A DNA stretch of 64,000 bases, taken from assembly GCA_003278145.1 (NCBI GenBank), contig QCGV01000001.1, forward strand, positions 11,616 to 75,615. Direction: 5' to 3'. The position numbers and the translations under genes were made by a program. The notes beneath the pieces were generated by a model. It was not told the origin of the DNA and searched no databases. It saw nothing but the letters and a program-made list of their open reading frames with translations. Shown here one piece after another: positions 1 to 40,470 of the stretch (its first letter is position 1; each line of letters starts with the position of its first letter). The stretch is from OCS116 cluster bacterium AG-390-A19 (GTDB taxonomy: Bacteria > Pseudomonadota > Alphaproteobacteria > MED-G09).

Positions 1-1470
1 CAATTCAGTAATGGGTTTGATTGGGATCTTCATTATACTTCTAGTGAGGATGATGGTTATATATCTCAGCCAGATACAAGTACAAAAAGATTCACTTCTG
101 CAATAAAAGGTGAGGGTGGAGTCAATAAAAACCAAACTTGGAATTTATTTGACTCTTCAAAAAATACCCAATCTTTAATTGATTGGATTTCCACAAAACA
201 AGAAACTTGGACAAATAATAAACTAGAAGTAATAGATTTTGTTTTATCTGGAGAAATAATTTCCAATTCTTTGGGAGTTATAGGATTAGCTGCAGGTCTT
301 CAGCTTAGACAAGAAGAATTTTCTGTATTAAGAGATGAGGACTCAAGAATAGAATTTGATGATCAAGGAAATATTTCTAAACCAGCTGATTTATTATTTC
401 TAGGTGGTGGTATTGAGGCGCAAGCTAAAAGGGATGCTTATGCAGCTTTTGCAGAACTCTCGATTTCCCCGAGTGATAATTTTGATATTAAGGTGGCCGC
501 AAGATATGAAGAACTTGAAAACGATAGTACTTTTGATCCTAAGCTATCAATATTATACAAATTAACGGATTATTTATCTTTCAGGGGATCTATAAGCTCC
601 TCTTTTAGAGAGCCTTCCTTATCTCAATTATATTCTGGTCAGGTTGGCTTGCAAGGTATTCAGGATTATTCAGATGGAGCTCCAAAAGGCGGGACATCAT
701 TTATAAGAATTGCTCAAAATGGAAATAGCCTTTTATCTCCAGAAGAGTCTGAAAATATAAATTTAGGAATTCTATGGAAACCAATTGAAAATTTTGATTT
801 CAAGATGGACTATTGGTCAATCGATTATTCAAACGTTATCACAATTGAGAGTGCTCAAGGAAAAGTTATAAATGACCCATCGAATTCAGATATTAAGAGA
901 ACTATTGATGGGACATTAATAGGCGTTACAACAAAATATTTCAACGCAGCAAATGTTGATACGAATGGAATAGATGTTGAATTAAACTATGAAAATAATA
1001 CAAATTTTGGTCTTCTAAATCTGGGTTTTAGAATGACACATATATTAGAGTATGAAATTCCTGGTAGTAATGGGTCGGCAATAGACGTTGTCGGTTTATT
1101 TAATCATGATAATTTTGCAAGATCATTGCCTGAAACAAAAATTGTTTTAAATACTAGTTTATCTGATAATAATCATAAAGTTTCATTTTTTGGCCGGTAT
1201 GTTTCTGATTACTCTACAACGAGGCCTTTGAGTTCAGCAGCAAAGACTGCTGGATTTGATCAAAAAATTGACCAATGGATTACTTTTGACCTTCAATACT
1301 CATATTCTTTCGTTGTATCGGGAAATGATATCAGATTATTGATTGGTGCTAATAATATTTTAGACGAGGATGTTCCAATTGTTTATGATGCAGCCAACTT
1401 TAGTTATGATCCAAAACACCATGACCCAAGAGGTAGATTGCTTTATTTTGGTTTAAAGTTATTACGATAA
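1..1470 (+). CDS. TonB-dependent receptor, C-terminal part (5' end lies outside the window)
   Basis: Frame 1 is open from base 1 (QFSNGFDWDLHYTS...) into the track ORF, so the TTG at 271 is not the real start. The sequence has an alternating beta-strand pattern and barrel-end region typical of TonB-dependent outer-membrane receptors. Confidence 0.75.
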   Translation, partial: QFSNGFDWDLHYTSSEDDGYISQPDTSTKRFTSAIKGEGGVNKNQTWNLFDSSKNTQSLIDWISTKQETWTNNKLEVIDFVLSGEIISNSLGVIGLAAGLQLRQEEFSVLRDEDSRIEFDDQGNISKPADLLFLGGGIEAQAKRDAYAAFAELSISPSDNFDIKVAARYEELENDSTFDPKLSILYKLTDYLSFRGSISSSFREPSLSQLYSGQVGLQGIQDYSDGAPKGGTSFIRIAQNGNSLLSPEESENINLGILWKPIENFDFKMDYWSIDYSNVITIESAQGKVINDPSNSDIKRTIDGTLIGVTTKYFNAANVDTNGIDVELNYENNTNFGLLNLGFRMTHILEYEIPGSNGSAIDVVGLFNHDNFARSLPETKIVLNTSLSDNNHKVSFFGRYVSDYSTTRPLSSAAKTAGFDQKIDQWITFDLQYSYSFVVSGNDIRLLIGANNILDEDVPIVYDAANFSYDPKHHDPRGRLLYFGLKLLR

Positions 1471-1491
1471 TTAATATCTTTAGTTAGTTAT

Positions 1492-2742
1492 CTATACTTT
1501 TTCAATCCTTATAGAGGTTATTTGATTTCTTTTTCTCTCTAAAATTTTGAATTTAAATCCATAAAAAATATAGGCGTTGTTAACACGCGGTATAGTTTGA
1601 GACTCATGGATAATTAAACCAGCAATAGTTGTTGCTTCATTGTCAGGGAGGTCCCAACCATAATTTCTATTTAAATCTCTAATACTCATACCACCATCAA
1701 CATCGATTGAATTTGGCATTTGATTTATAACTTCTTCATTTTCTAGGTCGTGTTCGTCGTCAATCTGACCAACAATTTCTTCTAAAATATCTTCAAGAGT
1801 TATTAAACCCATTATTGATCCATACTCATCAACAACTAATGCCATATGAAGTTTTTTCTCAAGAAAGGCATTTAATTGTTCTTTTAAACTAGTTGTTTCT
1901 GGTACAAACCATGGTTTTGACAAAACTTTTCTAATATTAATATTCTTTAAATCATTATCACTCTTTATGGCTTCTTTTATTAGAGATTTAATATGTAAAA
2001 GCCCTATAAAATTATCTGTACTTTCTTCCCATACTGGTATTCTGGTGTAAGGTGATGAAAGAATTTCTGTGATCTTACTTTCATCTATTTCATTTATATT
2101 AATGGCTGTAATATTTTTTCTATGCACCATTACATCTTCAACATTTACATCAGGAAGATCTAAAATTCCTCCTAACATATCTCTGTCACCTTTTTTTACT
2201 TCGCCCTCTTGATGATGAATAGAAATTTGTCCTCTAATTTCATCATGCGCATCAACTAATTTTTTTAAAGAAGTATTTTTTTTAACAAAAAAACTAGATA
2301 TTTTTTGTGCTAGAATTGCTACAGGTCCAAGAATAAGAATTGTAATTTTTATCAAAAAAGAAGATTTTAAAGACCAGCGATCGGAATTCTCAAGGGCTAT
2401 CATTTTTGGTAAAATTTCTGCAAAGATAACTACCAAGGTTGTCATTACAAATGTAGCTATAACTACCCCTACTTCACCAAATAAAGAAATAAACAAGCTG
2501 GTTGCCAAAACTGAGGCAAGTATATTTACAAGATTACTACCAACTAGGAGAGTACTTATAAGAGTGTCTTGTTTAGCAATAAGCTTTTCGAGTTCTTTTG
2601 CTCTTTTGTCTCCTTCATCAGCTAAATGCCTTATTCTTGCTTTAGATATAGCCGTTAGGGCAGTTTCTGAACCTGAAAAAAATGCTGAAATAATTATTAA
2701 TCCTAGAATGGATCCTATGAAAATGGCAATCGAAGTTATCAT
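1492..2742 (-). CDS. HlyC/CorC family transporter (DUF21 + CBS pair + CorC_HlyC domain)
   Basis: 416 aa with N-terminal TM helices, a central CBS-pair-like region and a C-terminal CorC/HlyC-type domain. Confidence 0.85.
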   Translation of the reverse strand: MITSIAIFIGSILGLIIISAFFSGSETALTAISKARIRHLADEGDKRAKELEKLIAKQDTLISTLLVGSNLVNILASVLATSLFISLFGEVGVVIATFVMTTLVVIFAEILPKMIALENSDRWSLKSSFLIKITILILGPVAILAQKISSFFVKKNTSLKKLVDAHDEIRGQISIHHQEGEVKKGDRDMLGGILDLPDVNVEDVMVHRKNITAININEIDESKITEILSSPYTRIPVWEESTDNFIGLLHIKSLIKEAIKSDNDLKNINIRKVLSKPWFVPETTSLKEQLNAFLEKKLHMALVVDEYGSIMGLITLEDILEEIVGQIDDEHDLENEEVINQMPNSIDVDGGMSIRDLNRNYGWDLPDNEATTIAGLIIHESQTIPRVNNAYIFYGFKFKILERKRNQITSIRIEKV

Positions 2743-3858
2743 TTATTTAAACCCATTAGAAATCATAAATGATTTTAAATAATCATCACTAATTCCATCT
2801 TTTATAATAGCGCTTCCAATATCATCTATTAAAATAAAAGTATTTGAGTTATCTTTTCTTTTTTTATCTAATGAAAAATTTATAATCATTTCTTCAGCAT
2901 GAATTTCTGTACCCAAATCTGTTATATGAGATGGAAGTCCTGATTCTTTTATTATTTTAATAATTTGCTCCTTATTCTCCATGCTGCATAAATTCATTTT
3001 AAATGATAGCTCTGCTGCTAAACATATCCCAATTCCTACTGCCTCGCCATGTAGAATTCCCTGACCATCTTTGTTGATCTTACTTTCTAAAGCATGCCCA
3101 AAGGTATGCCCTAAGTTTAAAAGTGCTCTTTTACCTTTTTCTTTTTCATCTTTTTCAACGATTTCAGCCTTCATAATGCAAGATTTCTCTACAGCTTCTG
3201 CAACTAAGGAGCTATTCAAATTTAAAATTTCTTCTTGATTAACTTCTAACCAGTTAAAGAAATCTTTATCGCCTAAAATTGAGTATTTTAATATTTCAGC
3301 ATAACCAGCGATTATTTCTCTTTTTGGAAGAGTTCTTAAAAAACTTACATCTGTAATAACTGCTTTTGGTTGATGAAATGAACCAACTAAATTTTTTCCT
3401 TCTTCCAGATTAATGCCAGTTTTTCCTCCTACAGCAGAGTCTACTTGAGATAAAATTGTTGTTGGAATTTGTATAAAGTTTATACCTCTATAAATGATAG
3501 AACTTGTAAATCCAACAAGATCACCAATTACTCCTCCTCCAAGAGCAATTAAGGTATCTTGTCTCTCAATTTTATAGCTTAAAAGTTCTCTGATTAATTT
3601 TTCTAAACTTTCAAAGCTTTTACTTTTCTCGCCTGACTGAATTATTATGGATTTTGTCTCAATTCCTCCATCTTCAAATATTTTTTTTATTTTAGGAAGT
3701 ATGAATCCAGCTACATTTTCGTCAGTTATTATAAAAACCCTAGGCCTTGATAAAATTTTTTCAATTGAGTTAATTAATATTTTTTCAATATCATCATTTA
3801 TAAAAATTTTATAAGAATTGTCTTTTAAATCTATTTTTATTTCTTTGATTTCATTCAT
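2743..3858 (-). CDS. aroB: 3-dehydroquinate synthase
   Basis: 371 aa with GGGVIGDLVGF nucleotide-binding and HGEAV metal-site motifs. It is directly coupled to aroK upstream. Confidence 0.9.
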   Translation of the reverse strand: MNEIKEIKIDLKDNSYKIFINDDIEKILINSIEKILSRPRVFIITDENVAGFILPKIKKIFEDGGIETKSIIIQSGEKSKSFESLEKLIRELLSYKIERQDTLIALGGGVIGDLVGFTSSIIYRGINFIQIPTTILSQVDSAVGGKTGINLEEGKNLVGSFHQPKAVITDVSFLRTLPKREIIAGYAEILKYSILGDKDFFNWLEVNQEEILNLNSSLVAEAVEKSCIMKAEIVEKDEKEKGKRALLNLGHTFGHALESKINKDGQGILHGEAVGIGICLAAELSFKMNLCSMENKEQIIKIIKESGLPSHITDLGTEIHAEEMIINFSLDKKRKDNSNTFILIDDIGSAIIKDGISDDYLKSFMISNGFK

Positions 3859-3862
3859 GAGC

Positions 3863-4402
3863 TTATTTTAAACTTTCTAAAGATTTTATAATAGCTTGAA
3901 GTATTTTTGTCTTATCAAGTTTATCTATTGTTATAGTTATATCAGCTTCTTCATATATTGCATTTCTTTCATTTAGGAGCAATGACAATGTATCTTCAAA
4001 GTTATCGACATTTAAAAGTGGGCGGTTTTTTTTATTTTTAAGTCTTTCTATTAATGTTTCCTTATTCGCTTTAAGCCAAATAGATATGCAGTCTTTCTTT
4101 ATTTTTTCTCGTATTTCTCTATTTATGAATGAACCACCACCAGATGATATAATAATTTGTTCATTGTTAATATTTTTTTTGAAGAAACCTAATTCTTCTT
4201 TTCTGAAGAAAACCTCACCATAATCATTAAATATGTCATTTATTTCTTTTCCTAAATTTTTTTCTATTTCTTTGTCGGAGTCGTAAAAAGGAAACTTTAG
4301 TTCCTCAGAGAGCATTTTACCAATTGTAGTTTTCCCAACTCCCATCATTCCAATCAATACAATTGAACGATTATTAAGGTTTGATATGACTTTTTTATTC
4401 AT
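3863..4402 (-). CDS. aroK: shikimate kinase
   Basis: 179 aa with P-loop GMMGVGKTT and an aroK-aroB operon arrangement. Confidence 0.9.
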   Translation of the reverse strand: MNKKVISNLNNRSIVLIGMMGVGKTTIGKMLSEELKFPFYDSDKEIEKNLGKEINDIFNDYGEVFFRKEELGFFKKNINNEQIIISSGGGSFINREIREKIKKDCISIWLKANKETLIERLKNKKNRPLLNVDNFEDTLSLLLNERNAIYEEADITITIDKLDKTKILQAIIKSLESLK

Positions 4403-35688: not shown

Positions 35689-37800
35689 ATGAAAAAACTA
35701 ATTATTTTTTTCTATATTATTGTTATCAGTTTTTCTAATATATGGGCCATGGATAATCCTTTTTTAAATAAATACGATACTGAATTTGAAATACCTCCTT
35801 TTTCAAAAATCAATAATAACCATTTTATGCCTGCATTCTTAATGGGTATAGATGAACATAATAAAGAAATAGCTAGTATAATAAATAATCTAGATAAGCC
35901 TTCATTTGAGAATGTTATCATTGCACTTGAAAAATCTGGGACCCTTTTGGATAGAACTGGCGCTGTTTTTTTTAATTTATCTGGATCGACCTCTGACGAA
36001 GAAATTCAGAACATTGAAAAGGAAATATCACCAATATTATCAGAGCACTATGACTCAATAAGTTTAAATCCCGAAATTTTTCAAAAGATTAAATATTTGT
36101 GGGACAATGCTGATGATCTAAGTCTATCTTCCGAGGAAAGAAAAATTTTAGAAGAAAAGTATAAGAATTTTATTAGAAATGGTGCTTTACTTGAGGGTCC
36201 TGAGAAAGAGAGATATTCATCAATTAATCAAGAAATATCTAAACTTTCAGTTAAATTTTCACAAAATTTATTGGCTGAGACTAATAATTTTGAGATTATT
36301 TTAACTAAAGATGATTTAGATGGTCTTCCTGATGATATTGTTATTCTAGCAAAGGAAGAGGCTGACAAAAAATATAAAGAAACAAAAGATAAAGATTATA
36401 AGAACAAATATATTTTTACACCTCACAGAAGTAGCATGTATCCTTTTCTTACTTATTCAAAGAGAAGGGATTTAAGAGAGAAGTTATACAAAGGTTACAT
36501 AAATAGAGGTGATAATAATAACGAGTTTGATAATAAGGAAATTACAGCAAAAATTTCTTCCCTAAGAGTCGAAAGAGCAAATTTACTTAATTTTGAGACT
36601 CATGCCCATTATGTATTAGATAATACCATGGCTAAAACACCTGAAGCTGTATATGAACTTCTCGATCAATTATGGCAACCAGCTCTATTAAGAGCCAATA
36701 AAGAGTTAGAAGATCTTCAATCTCTGGTTAATAAAGAGGGTGGGAACTTTAAAATTGCCTCCTGGGATTGGTGGTACTATTCAGAAAAGTTGAGAGAAGA
36801 AAAATATGATCTCAATGATGAAGAACTGAAAGAATTTTTTACTCTTAATAATACAATTGACGGTATCTTCAAAACCGCCAATAAACTTTTTGGATTATCT
36901 TTTGAAGAAAGGTTTGATATTGAGCTCTATCATGAAGATGCAAGAGTTTGGGAGGTTAAGGATAGAGATGGTTCTCACTTAGGAATTTATATTGGTGATT
37001 ATTATACACGCGCTAGCAAAAGAGGCGGCGCATGGATGAGTAGTTTTAAAGATCAATCTAACTTCGATGGGAGAGAGAGACCAATTGTAGTAAATGTTTG
37101 TAATTTTCCACCTCCATCGAATGACAAGCCCTCGCTTTTAAACCTTGAACATGTAACAACACTTTTTCATGAATTCGGACACGCTTTGCATGGGCTGGTT
37201 ACAAATACAGAATATTCAAGCCTTTCAGGTACATCTGTTTCAAGAGATTTTGTTGAGTTTCCATCTCAGGTTCTTGAGCACTGGGCAGTTGAGCCAGAAT
37301 TATTAAAACTATACGCAAAACATTATAAAACTGGAGAACCTATAGGTGATGAATTAATTTTCAAAATGCAAAATGCTAGTAAGTTTAATCAAGGTTTTGC
37401 AAATGTTGAATATTTAGCAGCATCTTACCTAGATATGGATTGGCATTCACTTAGAACTAATGAAATTCAAAATACGGTTGAGTTCGAAAATAATTCTCTT
37501 AAAAAAATAGGATTAATTGATGAAATAGTTTCTCGATATAGAACTACTTATTTCCAACATATATATTCCTCCTCTTATTCGGCTGGATACTACAGCTATA
37601 TATGGGCAGCTGTTTTAGACTCAGATGCTTTTGCAAGATTTAAAAATACAGGTGAAATATTTAATAAAGATTTAGCTGATAAATACAGAAAGTTTATTCT
37701 TGAAAAGGGTGGAACTGAAGATCCTATGGAACTTTATCGATCATTTGCAGGGAGTAATCCAGAAATTTCTGCTCTGTTAAGTGATAGAGGTTTGGAATAA
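35689..37800 (+). CDS. dcp: M3 family peptidyl-dipeptidase Dcp (exported)
   Basis: 703 aa with a signal peptide and zinc site HEFGHALH, plus a downstream E. The N-terminal NPFL...PPFSKI pattern is typical of Dcp. Confidence 0.9.
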   Translation: MKKLIIFFYIIVISFSNIWAMDNPFLNKYDTEFEIPPFSKINNNHFMPAFLMGIDEHNKEIASIINNLDKPSFENVIIALEKSGTLLDRTGAVFFNLSGSTSDEEIQNIEKEISPILSEHYDSISLNPEIFQKIKYLWDNADDLSLSSEERKILEEKYKNFIRNGALLEGPEKERYSSINQEISKLSVKFSQNLLAETNNFEIILTKDDLDGLPDDIVILAKEEADKKYKETKDKDYKNKYIFTPHRSSMYPFLTYSKRRDLREKLYKGYINRGDNNNEFDNKEITAKISSLRVERANLLNFETHAHYVLDNTMAKTPEAVYELLDQLWQPALLRANKELEDLQSLVNKEGGNFKIASWDWWYYSEKLREEKYDLNDEELKEFFTLNNTIDGIFKTANKLFGLSFEERFDIELYHEDARVWEVKDRDGSHLGIYIGDYYTRASKRGGAWMSSFKDQSNFDGRERPIVVNVCNFPPPSNDKPSLLNLEHVTTLFHEFGHALHGLVTNTEYSSLSGTSVSRDFVEFPSQVLEHWAVEPELLKLYAKHYKTGEPIGDELIFKMQNASKFNQGFANVEYLAASYLDMDWHSLRTNEIQNTVEFENNSLKKIGLIDEIVSRYRTTYFQHIYSSSYSAGYYSYIWAAVLDSDAFARFKNTGEIFNKDLADKYRKFILEKGGTEDPMELYRSFAGSNPEISALLSDRGLE

Positions 37801-37801
37801 A

Positions 37802-37829
37802 AAAAAGGAACCCGCTAAGGTTCCTTTTT
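37802..37829. terminator. bidirectional rho-independent terminator (AAAAAGGAACC-CGCTAA-GGTTCCTTTTT)
   Basis: 11-bp stem. It gives U5 on the plus strand (after dcp) and U8 on the minus strand (after the RNA candidate). Confidence 0.8.
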
Positions 37830-38093
37830 AATACCTAATCGCCCTCGATTAAGCATGCCACCCGCTCTTCTTTTAAAAACTTCTTCCCAATCCACCCCCG
37901 AGGGGACTTCTTGGTCTTCCGTTTCATGAGACTTCCTACCTTTCACTCCCCGAAGGGACTTCCTGATTATCTTTCTCATCAGAAGTGGCTACCTTCCGAG
38001 TATCGCTACTCTTCTTCTCACCATGACCCGATGACCAATCGGCTCTCACTGCGGTCTGACACCCGCCCAACGATAGCTGGTCATCGCTACCGT
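37830..38093 (-). ncRNA. unassigned structured RNA candidate (about 290 nt including the terminator)
   Basis: 51% G+C (123/240 in 37861-38100, hand count) in a genome of about 30% G+C. It has its own promoter and terminator on the minus strand. Several helices are readable by eye, including a cUUCGg hairpin that exists only in minus-strand sense. No conserved core of RNase P, tmRNA, SRP or 6S was recognised. Confidence 0.55.
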
Positions 38094-38097
38094 CGAT

Positions 38098-38126
38098 ATT
38101 ATAGAAACATGTAAATTGAATCTAAA
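38098..38126 (-). promoter_or_regulatory. sigma-70-type promoter TTTAGA-17 nt-TATAAT for the RNA candidate
   Basis: The minus strand reads -35 TTTAGA (38126-38121), a 17-nt spacer, and a perfect -10 TATAAT (38103-38098). The predicted start is near 38091-38094. Confidence 0.45.
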
Positions 38127-38145: not shown

Positions 38146-38180
38146 TTCTGTGGATAACTTTATTTTTCTGTGGATAACTT
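38146..38180 (-). promoter_or_regulatory. two perfect DnaA boxes (TTATCCACA) in direct repeat
   Basis: The plus strand has TGTGGATAA at 38149-38157 and 38169-38177 (20-bp phasing), embedded in a 15-nt direct repeat TTCTGTGGATAACTT (38146-38160, 38166-38180). Confidence 0.6.
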
Positions 38181-38189
38181 GAATTATTG

Positions 38190-38266
38190 TGGTACAGCCA
38201 CTTAGATTTGAACTAAGGACCTCCTGGTCCACAACCAGGCGCTCTAACCAACTGAGCTATGGCTGC
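38190..38266 (-). tRNA. tRNA-His (GUG), A73 / G1:U72 type, CCA encoded
   Basis: Cloverleaf: acceptor GCAGCCA/TGGCTGT, D arm GCTC-AGTTGGTTA-GAGC, anticodon arm CCTGG-TTGTGGA-CCAGG, T arm CTTAG-TTCAAAT-CTAAG, discriminator A, then CCA. Confidence 0.95.
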
Positions 38267-38320: not shown

Positions 38321-39118
38321 TTAAATTGGTTTTTTGAAAAGAAGTGTCATTCTATCGCTTTCACCAATTTGTCGATATTTTTCTTTATCTCCATCTTTTA
38401 AATAAAGAGAGGGTGGAAGCGTCCAAACTCCATTAGGATGATCTTTAGTATCTCTTACATTGGCATTGATTTCAGACTTTTTTGATAAAATGAAACCAGC
38501 TTCTTCTGCTAAATTTATGGTAAGCTCCTCGGTTACATAACCACTTTTTTTCATCTCTTTAATTGAAATACCAGAATTAGCTCTATGCTCTACTACACCT
38601 AAAATACCTCCAGGTTTAAGGGCGGCATAGGATTGTTCAAATACTTTTTTTACTCCACTTCCATCTTCACCAAGCCAATTATGAACATTTCTAAATGTAA
38701 GGACAGCATCAACCGTTTCATTTTCAGCAAGCTTACCAAATAGATCAACAATTTTTACTTTTTCAAAAATACTTTTACTCTTAAGTTTAGCCTCATAGGC
38801 TTCTCTCGATCTTTTTGCATAATCGCTTAAAGATGCACTGTAGGGTGCAGTAATTAACTCGCCTTCATCGTACATGTAAATTGCAAGAATTTCTGTGTAC
38901 CAGCCTCCTCCGGGTGATAATTCTACAACTGTCATCTCGGGCTCTATTTCAAAGAATTTGAGTGTTTCATATGGATGTCGAAATTTATCTCTTTCAACAT
39001 TTTCTTTTGATCTTTCCTCACTATTTACTGATTGTTCAAGATTATGCGCTTGAATTGAGAAAGAATTAAAAAGAATAAAAATAAGAATAAAAATTGAGAT
39101 AAATTTTTTCATAACCAA
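38321..39118 (-). CDS. class I SAM-dependent methyltransferase with N-terminal signal peptide
   Basis: 265 aa with signal-like MKKFISIFILIFILFNSFSIQA-HN and methyltransferase motif I VVELSPGGGWYT. Confidence 0.8.
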   Translation of the reverse strand: MVMKKFISIFILIFILFNSFSIQAHNLEQSVNSEERSKENVERDKFRHPYETLKFFEIEPEMTVVELSPGGGWYTEILAIYMYDEGELITAPYSASLSDYAKRSREAYEAKLKSKSIFEKVKIVDLFGKLAENETVDAVLTFRNVHNWLGEDGSGVKKVFEQSYAALKPGGILGVVEHRANSGISIKEMKKSGYVTEELTINLAEEAGFILSKKSEINANVRDTKDHPNGVWTLPPSLYLKDGDKEKYRQIGESDRMTLLFKKPI

Positions 39119-39243
39119 GTCCTTTATTGTCTAATAATTAGATTATAGATAATTAATAATATTAAAACATTTTTAAAAAATTTCTTTTCATTAGATTTTA
39201 TATATTTATTGTAAGTACTTCTTATTTTAAGTCGGGGATAAAG

Positions 39244-40470
39244 TTGTTTAAATCATTTCATGGATGGAGAATTGTAGCCAGCTCTGGTTTTATCAACATG
39301 TTTTCAGTTGGCATTCCTTTTTATGCCTATTCTATATTTTACATACATCTTCAAAATGAGTTTAATGCTGGAAGATTTTTAATATCGAGCACCTTATCTA
39401 TCATGATTATTGCTGCTGGAGTATTTGCTCCAATTTGTGGTCAACTAGTAGATAAATTTTCTCTTAAAAATCTTCTATCTATTGGAGCAATAATCTTTGG
39501 TATTGGGTTAATATTGCTTGGTTTCTGTCAAACCTATTATCAATTTCTAATTGTTTATGGATCAATAGTTGCTCTAGGGATGACATTATTTGGTAATCTA
39601 GCGACATCTAAATTAATCTCAAATTGGTTTAAAAAGAAAATTGGCTCTGCCATAGGTTATGCTACCTTGGGTATTTCTTTATCGGGAGTTTTTATTCCTC
39701 CTATTTCTGTCTATTTGATCAGTTTATATGGATGGAGAGCTACTTATATAATTTTTGGTATTTTTCTAATTGTTTTTTTCGTACCTTTCTGCCGTTATTT
39801 AATTGTTAATAAACCCTCTGATATTAACCAAAATGTTGATAACGAAAAATTATCTGAGGAAATTGATAATAGCGTTACTGATAAAATGATGAATATTGTC
39901 GATATACTAAGAGTTCCTACTTTTTGGATTTTAATATTAATTTTTAGTCTGCAGTTTTGTGCAAATCTTGGTGTTTATAGTCATATTTTCCCCTATGCAA
40001 CGGATTTAGGCTTTAATGCAAGCAAGGCTGGTCTTGCTGTTTCCGTCGGAGCGTTAGGCGCAGCTTTAGGAAAAATTGTTTTTGGTAAGCTTATAGATAT
40101 GATTTCTGCAAAGAAAACCTTATGGGTATCGGTATCAATTCAAGGTTTTGGGATAATTTTGGTTTCTCTCTTTTCAAGCTACTATCCTTTATTGATTTCA
40201 ATTTTTATAATGAGTTTAGGTCTTGGCGGAAGCGTTCCATTAATGAATATCCTTTTTTCAAAAACTTTTTCCCCTATAAATTTTGGTAAAGCGCTGGGTA
40301 TAGCGGTACCATTTATGGTTCCTATACAAGTTATTGGAGGTCCTCTATCAGGATGGTTATATGATATTAATGGAAATTATGATTTAGCTTTTTATTTAAA
40401 TACTGGTGTTTGTTTTTTAGCTTTTATCTTTGTTTTCTTTTTGAATATTCCAGATAACAAACAGAGTTGA
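39244..40470 (+). CDS. MFS transporter
   Basis: 408 aa with TTG start and 12 TM segments. Confidence 0.8.
   Translation: MFKSFHGWRIVASSGFINMFSVGIPFYAYSIFYIHLQNEFNAGRFLISSTLSIMIIAAGVFAPICGQLVDKFSLKNLLSIGAIIFGIGLILLGFCQTYYQFLIVYGSIVALGMTLFGNLATSKLISNWFKKKIGSAIGYATLGISLSGVFIPPISVYLISLYGWRATYIIFGIFLIVFFVPFCRYLIVNKPSDINQNVDNEKLSEEIDNSVTDKMMNIVDILRVPTFWILILIFSLQFCANLGVYSHIFPYATDLGFNASKAGLAVSVGALGAALGKIVFGKLIDMISAKKTLWVSVSIQGFGIILVSLFSSYYPLLISIFIMSLGLGGSVPLMNILFSKTFSPINFGKALGIAVPFMVPIQVIGGPLSGWLYDINGNYDLAFYLNTGVCFLAFIFVFFLNIPDNKQS

Follow-up and report, generated by a model that had tools for sequence, protein, structure and literature searches.

Between the tRNA-His gene and the convergent M3 peptidase gene dcp, the 64,000-nucleotide (nt) stretch of OCS116 cluster bacterium AG-390-A19 analyzed here (contig QCGV01000001.1; hereafter the window) carries a stand-alone, conserved, covarying, and non-coding structured RNA gene on its minus strand. 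The inferred transcript of about 295 nt lies at 37799-38095, with a predicted 5' end at 38091-38095 and a predicted 3' end at 37799-37803. Judged by the homologues recovered, it is a new RNA family confined to a subclade of marine OCS116 alphaproteobacteria, and comparison of the upstream regions shows one or two consensus DnaA boxes accompanying the RNA, one contig (L099) excepted. Taken together, the data suggest a clade-restricted, trans-acting structured RNA whose transcription may be set by DnaA, a reading to which we assign a probability of roughly 45%.

Conservation and fold of the RNA

The RNA region stands out by its base composition. A recount of 37861-38100 gave exactly 123 G+C in 240 nt, identical to the count in a preliminary description of the locus, and the highest-GC 240-nt segments of the whole window fall in the RNA region with a maximum of 0.525, compared with 0.458 for the next best segment elsewhere and 0.318 overall. 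Read along the minus strand, tRNA-His (38190-38266), upstream of the RNA gene, is followed by AAGTTATCCACAGAA in two copies and then by an AT-rich stretch that resembles a promoter. Next come some 295 nt rich in G, a hairpin of 12 base pairs (bp), U8, and the convergent dcp (35689-37800; Pfam Peptidase_M3). Purines make up 61% of the RNA sense strand (A84, C50, G99, and U68), and a gap of 10 nt separates the module of boxes and RNA from the 3' end of tRNA-His.

Twenty-four distinct homologues were recovered from one single-cell genome, several metagenome-assembled genomes (MAGs), and ocean metagenomes. They are 77-97% identical to the window RNA and fall into three subgroups (A, B, and C) plus one aberrant variant at 59%. 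With nhmmer, two loci (L001 and L052) proved to carry the RNA downstream of dcp, a metagenome scan with an invariant 21-mer yielded seven true homologues, and searches with C-terminal dcp fragments added three more RNA-bearing loci (L099, L102, and L104). Protein collections searched with an antisense open reading frame (ORF) of 67 amino acids (aa) and a sense ORF of 48 aa returned the clusters P0001 and P0122-P0131, whose contigs gave further loci; used as a search for wider homologues, these spurious translations led to the same clade only. The covariance model (R1) found exactly one RNA copy per locus, and no second copy was detected with it in the 64-kilobase (kb) window or in any recovered locus.

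The minus strand folds with a minimum free energy of -102.3 kcal/mol (z = -4.2), a value that 0 of 100 shuffles reach, and relatives gave z-scores of -3.4 and -4.3. A MAFFT alignment of 12 sequences analyzed with RNAalifold contained 78 pairs, 12 of which showed compensatory double changes while very few were broken. In the 24-sequence alignment, 99.0% of pair cells are paired compared with 33-52% when the partners are slid by 1-3 columns, although the former percentage is somewhat inflated because this alignment was fitted to the model. Double changes occurred at 16 pairs as opposed to 1-5 in the slid controls, and the covariation score was 0.174 as opposed to 0.02-0.05, respectively. The independent MAFFT/RNAalifold run, which was not fitted to the model, still gave 12 compensatory pairs. 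By helix, compensatory pairs number six in P1, three in P7, two in P11, and one each in P3, P5, P8, P9, and P10. The preliminary description had let its claim of a structured RNA depend on conservation and covariation among relatives, and both were found.

The consensus fold consists of 14 helices in three parts, a 5' domain, a central three-way junction domain, and a 3' hairpin with the terminator. Variable columns make up 36-44% of the 5' and central domains, in contrast to the invariant junction strands and P14. The 5' domain (37986-38095, on the minus strand like all helices given here), delimited by RNAalifold and pair counts, comprises P1 (38095-38086 / 38077-38068), P2 (38066-38063 / 38054-38051), P3 (38045-38039 / 38031-38025), P4 (38023-38020 / 37989-37986), and P5 (38011-38007 / 38002-37998), the last capped by a tetraloop that is always GNRA, either GCGA, GCAA, or GUAA. 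Within 38032-38083, UGACCA of the P1 loop (38083-38078) and UGGUCA of the P3 loop (38037-38032) are pairable in 100% of 23 sequences, with changes solely from C-G to U-G and from U-A to U-G, a pattern compatible with a 6-bp kissing contact between the two loops. This region had been described as a 9-bp CGAUGACCA/UGGUCAUCG helix. Its best reading is a loop-loop contact of 6 bp, 100% pairable and with wobble-preserving changes only.

The central domain (37867-37985 in the consensus fold) is closed by P6, in which CUUCU (37985-37981) faces AGAAG (37871-37867), and holds arm 1 (P7-P9, 37979-37926) and arm 2 (P10-P12, 37925-37876). P6 is pairable in 24 of 24 sequences without any variation. A composite helix drawn here in the preliminary description joined AUGAGA/UCUCAU to a local CUUC/GAAG pairing. 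While its first part stands as P7, with three compensatory pairs and a switch from AUGAGA/UCUCAU to AUGGAG/CUCCAU, the closing pair of the second part is lost in 17 of 24 sequences, and CUUCU more likely pairs with the distal AGAAG than with the local GAAG. The two purine-rich arms are paralogous, as 0 of 500 shuffles score as well, and the two CCC-UUCG-GGG hairpins already recognized as paralogous are both present, one with a compensatory pair. In subgroup C the arms are more alike each other (0.82-0.89) than their orthologues and are thus partly homogenized. The natural variant L118 (1-420) has lost exactly one paralogous arm in a 53-nt deletion between the repeats, evidently by recombination between the two arms. 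It also carries a U-to-A change in a P6 strand.

The 3' hairpin P14 (GCUUAAUCG-AGGG-CGAUUAGGU, 37833-37854) is invariant at all 22 nt in 24 sequences, 17 of which were retrieved independently of this pattern. The hairpin reported earlier as CUUAAUCG-AGGG-CGAUUAGG is present, but it does not vary. On the ENA contig L099 (1900-2066), the RNA keeps its central and 3' domains while the 5' ~90 nt are wholly different, and no DnaA boxes are seen upstream; either the variant is real, with a swapped domain, or the assembly is chimeric.

Predicted transcription and upstream DnaA boxes

The covariance-model match spans 37796-38095 with 366 bits. The 3' end is placed at 37799-37803 because the terminator marks it, and the 5' end at about 38091-38095 because a conserved extended -10 element ends 5-6 nt ahead of the first base of the covarying helix P1, which starts at 38095. 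The TTTAGA-17-TATAAT promoter of the preliminary description was recovered by a promoter scan as a putative sigma-70 promoter (38126-38098, minus strand) with 10 of 12 matches. Its exact hexamers, however, are near consensus in the window's own subgroup only and are not kept in groups B and C, and the scan found no promoter at the same position in the relatives L001, L085, and L088. Conserved at a fixed position among the homologues is TTG...-17-TG-n-TTYTAT, an element of the extended -10 type. In the window it corresponds to an overlapping putative promoter, TTGTTT-17-TGt-TTCTAT (38129-38101, minus strand), in which the subgroups share the TTG and TGnTTYTAT positions, and transcription of the RNA would start from it.

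An intrinsic terminator was found by scan on the minus strand, with a 12-bp stem at 37829-37802 and U8 at 37806-37799. Hairpin and U8, both part of the preliminary description, are invariant in all homologues. The terminator has a symmetric layout (A5-stem-T8), and the dcp stop codon (37798-37800) shares bases with its U-tract, for which reason a single bidirectional terminator probably serves the RNA and the convergent dcp.

Two perfect DnaA boxes, absent from the preliminary description, lie upstream of the promoter on the minus strand. Each is a perfect TTATCCACA 9-mer within the repeat AAGTTATCCACAGAA. Box 1 occupies 38169-38177 (repeat 38166-38180) at about -74 to -82 from the inferred start, and box 2 occupies 38149-38157 (repeat 38146-38160) at about -54 to -62. 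Their centers, at about -58 and -78, are 20 bp apart, a spacing that turns both boxes towards one face of the helix. The 64 kb, for which 0.7 perfect TTATCCACA sites are expected, contain these two and no others, while near-consensus boxes are not enriched in the window (16 found versus 21.7 expected). The extended 11-mer GTTATCCACAG has two perfect occurrences at oriC of Escherichia coli. Across 177 kb of related loci, all perfect boxes are located just upstream of the RNA, with the 20-bp spacing wherever there are two, and none occurs elsewhere. The relatives L002, L003, and L098, in which the RNA is absent between dcp and tRNA-His (this locus only), have no DnaA box. Box 1 is kept in every homologue with tRNA-His or a 1109-aa gene upstream and is lost where a 4HBT flank replaces it; box 2 is found in every homologue with enough upstream sequence, again with the exception of L099.

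In the mechanism proposed here, transcription would start at the extended -10 type promoter, DnaA would occupy both high-affinity boxes (about -58 and -78) and set transcription of the RNA, and the RNA level would follow DnaA status. DnaA works as a transcription factor in Caulobacter (PMC10532879). Dependence on an activator fits the layout, as most subgroups have a sub-consensus core promoter and the high-affinity sites lie upstream on one helical face. We consider the chances that DnaA binds the boxes and sets transcription to be about even. The RNA itself would act in trans by binding protein, either as a scaffold or as a decoy, with the invariant junction and 3' hairpin recognized sequence-specifically and the two near-equivalent arms offering two copies of one binding surface. 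This second part is speculative, with the odds against it. A protein-binding mode is favored by the contrast between the invariant junction and P14 and the variable domains, by the duplicated, partly homogenized arms, by the GNRA cap, and by the elaborate fold, and the lack of target complementarity above shuffled background in the window, a search that covered 64 kb or ~5% of a genome, was likewise counted for it. A DnaA-gated, ribonucleoprotein-forming RNA might further constitute a new RNA layer of replication and cell-cycle control in marine alphaproteobacteria with streamlined genomes, sequestering or scaffolding a cell-cycle or growth regulator through its junction and twin arms, possibly with feedback on DnaA itself; this extension is decidedly unlikely.

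Several points weigh against a trans-acting RNA under DnaA control. Expression, transcript ends, and promoter are all predicted, and the effect of DnaA could equally be activation or repression by DnaA oligomerization. Three loci do without the distal box, L099 is without the 5' domain and has no DnaA boxes in the 69 nt of upstream sequence present, and the boxes could have a role at the DNA level that is unrelated to the RNA. The genes in conserved synteny include none for a candidate partner protein. The RNA is narrowly distributed and is missing at this locus from sister lineages whose dcp is 76-81% identical, so its function is not essential. Finally, the A/U-rich stretch AUUAAAAA ahead of the terminator and the U-tail of the latter also suit a base-pairing small RNA (sRNA) of the Hfq type.

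In such an sRNA, invariant purine-rich single strands (e.g., UUUUUAAAAGAAGAG) would pair with pyrimidine-rich mRNA sites. The rho-independent terminator, with its 12-bp stem and invariant U8 tail, agrees with this, as do the existence of invariant stretches and several A-R-N-like triplet runs visible in the sequence. However, known seed-type sRNAs are much simpler than this RNA, with its 295 nt, its 14 helices, and its invariant junction, and most of the invariant stretches are taken up by helices in the consensus fold. Of the duplexes computed with 61 translation-initiation regions of the window (~5% of a genome), the best reached -23.6 kcal/mol, while the shuffled minimum was -27.7 kcal/mol. 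A base-pairing function of this type, the main rival as regards the mode of action, is unlikely.

The boxes could also be the primary element, forming a DnaA-titrating or DnaA-recharging site (datA- or DARS-like) or a relic, with the RNA either unrelated or its transcription modulating box occupancy. Clusters of DnaA boxes at non-origin chromosomal sites are established in E. coli and Bacillus subtilis, and the boxes found here belong to the high-affinity R type, with a tight conservation that extends into their flanks. Yet boxes and RNA never occur apart in 177 kb, and the RNA itself is under strong structure-preserving selection. There are one or two boxes only, one of which is dispensable, and their fixed placing just upstream of the promoter resembles a transcriptional operator. 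We give a titration site a low probability. The locus is not a replication origin, since no GC-skew turn occurs in the 64-kb window, where an excess of near-consensus boxes is likewise lacking.

Coding potential and rearrangement of the locus

An ORF ending in KFLKEERxAxLIEGD is open in all 24 variants with the same UAG and an ATG start. It might represent a small-protein gene or a dual-function RNA, encoding a Lys/Arg/Glu-rich peptide of 30-48 aa under DnaA control like sda of Bacillus, and gene callers do annotate it (P0122-P0131). Its pN/pS values of 0.38 and 0.56 were counted for this reading, but they fall within the 0.30-2.5 spanned by the other two frames, and control frames gave a similar 0.30-0.61. 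Start AUG, length, and N-terminal frame vary by subgroup, with 30 aa in subgroups A and B and 48 aa in C, separated by a 2-nt indel, and the three codon positions have even shares of the variable columns (6, 5, and 5 in one comparison and 3, 6, and 7 in the other). Both AUGs are located inside the covarying helix P7, and the U-poor, purine-rich composition favors chance open frames. The comparison thus gives no coding signal and leaves a translated peptide unsupported, in keeping with the non-coding nature assumed in the preliminary description, and a DnaA-controlled small protein is very unlikely. Several "hypothetical proteins" in public collections are translations of the RNA gene from both strands (window 37815-38114). 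They include an antisense 83-aa JGI cluster and sense clusters of 48, 64, and 82 aa, among them the NCBI MAG locus VXY52_03500 (P0001 and P0122-P0131), and are likely mis-annotations.

The commonest order of the locus is tRNA-His, boxes, RNA, and convergent dcp. In one lineage (L087), a 1109-aa gene (808-4137) is inserted between tRNA-His and the DnaA boxes, and the 3' side of tRNA-His is an insertion hotspot. The inserted gene has the zinc-protease motif HEIGHALGLDHPF. A 4HBT thioesterase flank replaces the sequence up to the middle of box 1 in L086, L108, and L117, leaving one box, and tRNA-Arg(TCT) is found in place of dcp in L086, L114, and L118, where 12-20 nt of the dcp 3' end remain. 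The proximal box and the RNA are retained in every rearranged context, with tRNA-His, the 1109-aa gene, or 4HBT upstream and the dcp remnant and tRNA-Arg downstream; box and RNA form a self-contained unit in a rearrangement hotspot. In L098 (dcp ~81% identical), a DUF6580-like ORF of ~500 nt (1164-1739) is located between dcp and tRNA-His, with neither RNA nor DnaA box. Similarities along the locus are incongruent, as dcp and RNA are 95 and 77% identical to those of the window in L001 and 91 and 97% in L052, respectively, and this disagreement indicates probable recombination at the RNA/dcp locus.

A mobile-element remnant or cargo beside tRNA-His, for example a plasmid or phage replication-control RNA with DnaA boxes, would account for the closeness to a tRNA gene, whose 3' end is 10 nt away, the rearrangement hotspot, the presence and absence among relatives, and the disagreement between RNA and dcp phylogenies. 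Kissing loops together with DnaA boxes are reminiscent of plasmid replication control. However, 50,697 phage and 72,556 plasmid records contained 0 matches, and IMG/VR gave no true match, as matches to a GC-rich 18-mer were due to chance in contigs of 59-71% GC and a specific 21-mer gave none. No integrase, att repeat, or antisense promoter was found, the RNA is present as a single copy per locus, and the dcp 3' remnant in the alternative contexts argues for local deletion or insertion and not for transposition. Such an origin is most improbable.

The window dcp is 95% identical to that of a "Rhodobiaceae" MAG and 91% to that of an OCS116-cluster single-cell genome. The stretch therefore belongs to an OCS116-cluster alphaproteobacterium and not to Pelagibacter, and the placement among Pelagibacterales in the preliminary description is replaced accordingly. 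Outside the OCS116 subclade, the nearest dcp relatives were Gammaproteobacteria and Bacteroidota with 56-59% identity and not other alphaproteobacteria (loci L004-L080), which suggests that dcp was laterally acquired. Elsewhere in the window, a very AT-rich intergenic region (39000-39300, 19-22% GC) separates a 265-aa gene from a divergent MFS transporter gene.

Relation to known RNA families and regulatory systems

At gathering thresholds, Rfam 15 assigned three tRNAs only in the whole window. At E<=10 with relaxed filters, the window and two divergent homologues (L001 and L088) yielded scattered sub-threshold matches, none of them consistent, and the phrase "no recognisable family" of the preliminary description still applies. 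Its failure to find the cores of RNase P RNA, transfer-messenger RNA (tmRNA), signal recognition particle (SRP) RNA, and 6S RNA was repeated with Rfam and ARAGORN. RNase P RNA had no match at either setting on the three variants. For tmRNA, including the two-piece alphaproteobacterial form, ARAGORN found three tRNAs only and Rfam gave no tmRNA or alpha_tmRNA match, while 6S and SRP RNA were without a match even at E<=10 and the consensus fold is a multi-domain junction and not a rod. A highly diverged universal RNA of one of these kinds, beyond the reach of the Rfam models, is scarcely credible: size and GC content are like those of housekeeping RNAs, and GGAAGUCC and GUGAAAGG loosely resemble RNase P conserved regions by eye, but in addition to these negative searches sister lineages have no such RNA at the locus, and a junction with duplicated arms, one of which can be lost, fits none of them.

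The sequence CUGAUGA...GAAAC at the junction recalls a hammerhead ribozyme, but its AUGAGA pairs with UCUCAU (three pairs compensatory), 4 nt lie between the helix and GAAA, A9 is G in group C, and no Rfam hammerhead match was obtained. A CsrA sponge of the CsrB/RsmZ type was rejected as well, with 8 GGA motifs of which 0 are in hairpin loops and which are kept in 4 to 23 of 23 sequences; PrrB_RsmZ, whose gathering score is 44, reached 12.7 bits. The best sub-threshold Rfam match was Atu_C8 (RF02502), a Rhizobiales sRNA and likewise alphaproteobacterial, with 21.5 bits in the window and 17.5 bits in L001 compared with a gathering score of 50. It covers the 3' hairpin and terminator and consists of the terminator and generic hairpin geometry, over the last ~100 nt of the RNA only.

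The RNA family is new and without assignable relatives, and its kind, the stand-alone structured or regulatory RNA of bacteria, is already known. The coupling of such an RNA to consensus DnaA boxes outside the origin was not previously known, and this is the only case found of a non-origin structured-RNA gene behind consensus DnaA boxes. Well-supported stand-alone structured RNAs of ~300 nt are rare, and earlier ones proved to be ribozymes, ribonucleoprotein scaffolds, or global regulators. The host clade is abundant, uncultured, and oceanic, with small genomes and few regulators. If DnaA does drive the RNA, replication-initiator status would be read through RNA, a new and testable link to replication physiology in oligotrophic bacteria. 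A covariance model would also correct the database annotation of pieces of the RNA gene as hypothetical proteins.

CsrB/RsmZ (binding CsrA), CrcZ (Hfq/Crc), and 6S RNA (RNA polymerase) are similar in having their own transcription and a terminator end, in exceeding the length of seed-type sRNAs, and in their repeated purine-rich modules. The RNA described here differs in having two repeat units only, set within a conserved three-way junction, and in lacking the 6S architecture. OLE, GOLLD, ROOL, and the raiA motif were likewise GC-rich, covarying intergenic islands whose function was unassigned when they were found, with multiple helices, GNRA loops, and pseudoknot-like contacts. Compared with these, the present RNA has no Rfam match, is smaller, has a far narrower distribution, and is alone in carrying DnaA boxes at its promoter.

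The closest parallel in a cell-cycle setting is CcnA of Caulobacter crescentus, a cell-cycle non-coding RNA (ncRNA) of 182 nt whose gene lies inside the chromosomal origin, is under the control of a CtrA box, and includes weak DnaA boxes, and which base-pairs with the 5' untranslated regions of ctrA and gcrA (PMC8959179). Both are stand-alone alphaproteobacterial ncRNAs whose genes are tied to sites for replication and cell-cycle master regulators (DnaA and CtrA boxes in CcnA), and CcnA, too, has been proposed to couple replication to expression (PMC8959179). The present RNA, at ~295 nt, is encoded outside an origin; its two perfect DnaA boxes precede the promoter, in which direct reading of the sequence shows no full CtrA box (TTAA-N7-TTAA). 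No relationship to CcnA in sequence or structure was found, and the literature on OCS116 ncRNAs or DnaA-regulated sRNAs held nothing beyond CcnA. Among protein-coding genes, sda of B. subtilis is a small checkpoint gene under DnaA boxes that encodes a 46-aa protein. It shares with the present locus a short gene with DnaA boxes in the promoter region, through which initiator status would be read out as a regulator; while sda delivers a protein, the product here is a structured RNA and coding is unsupported.

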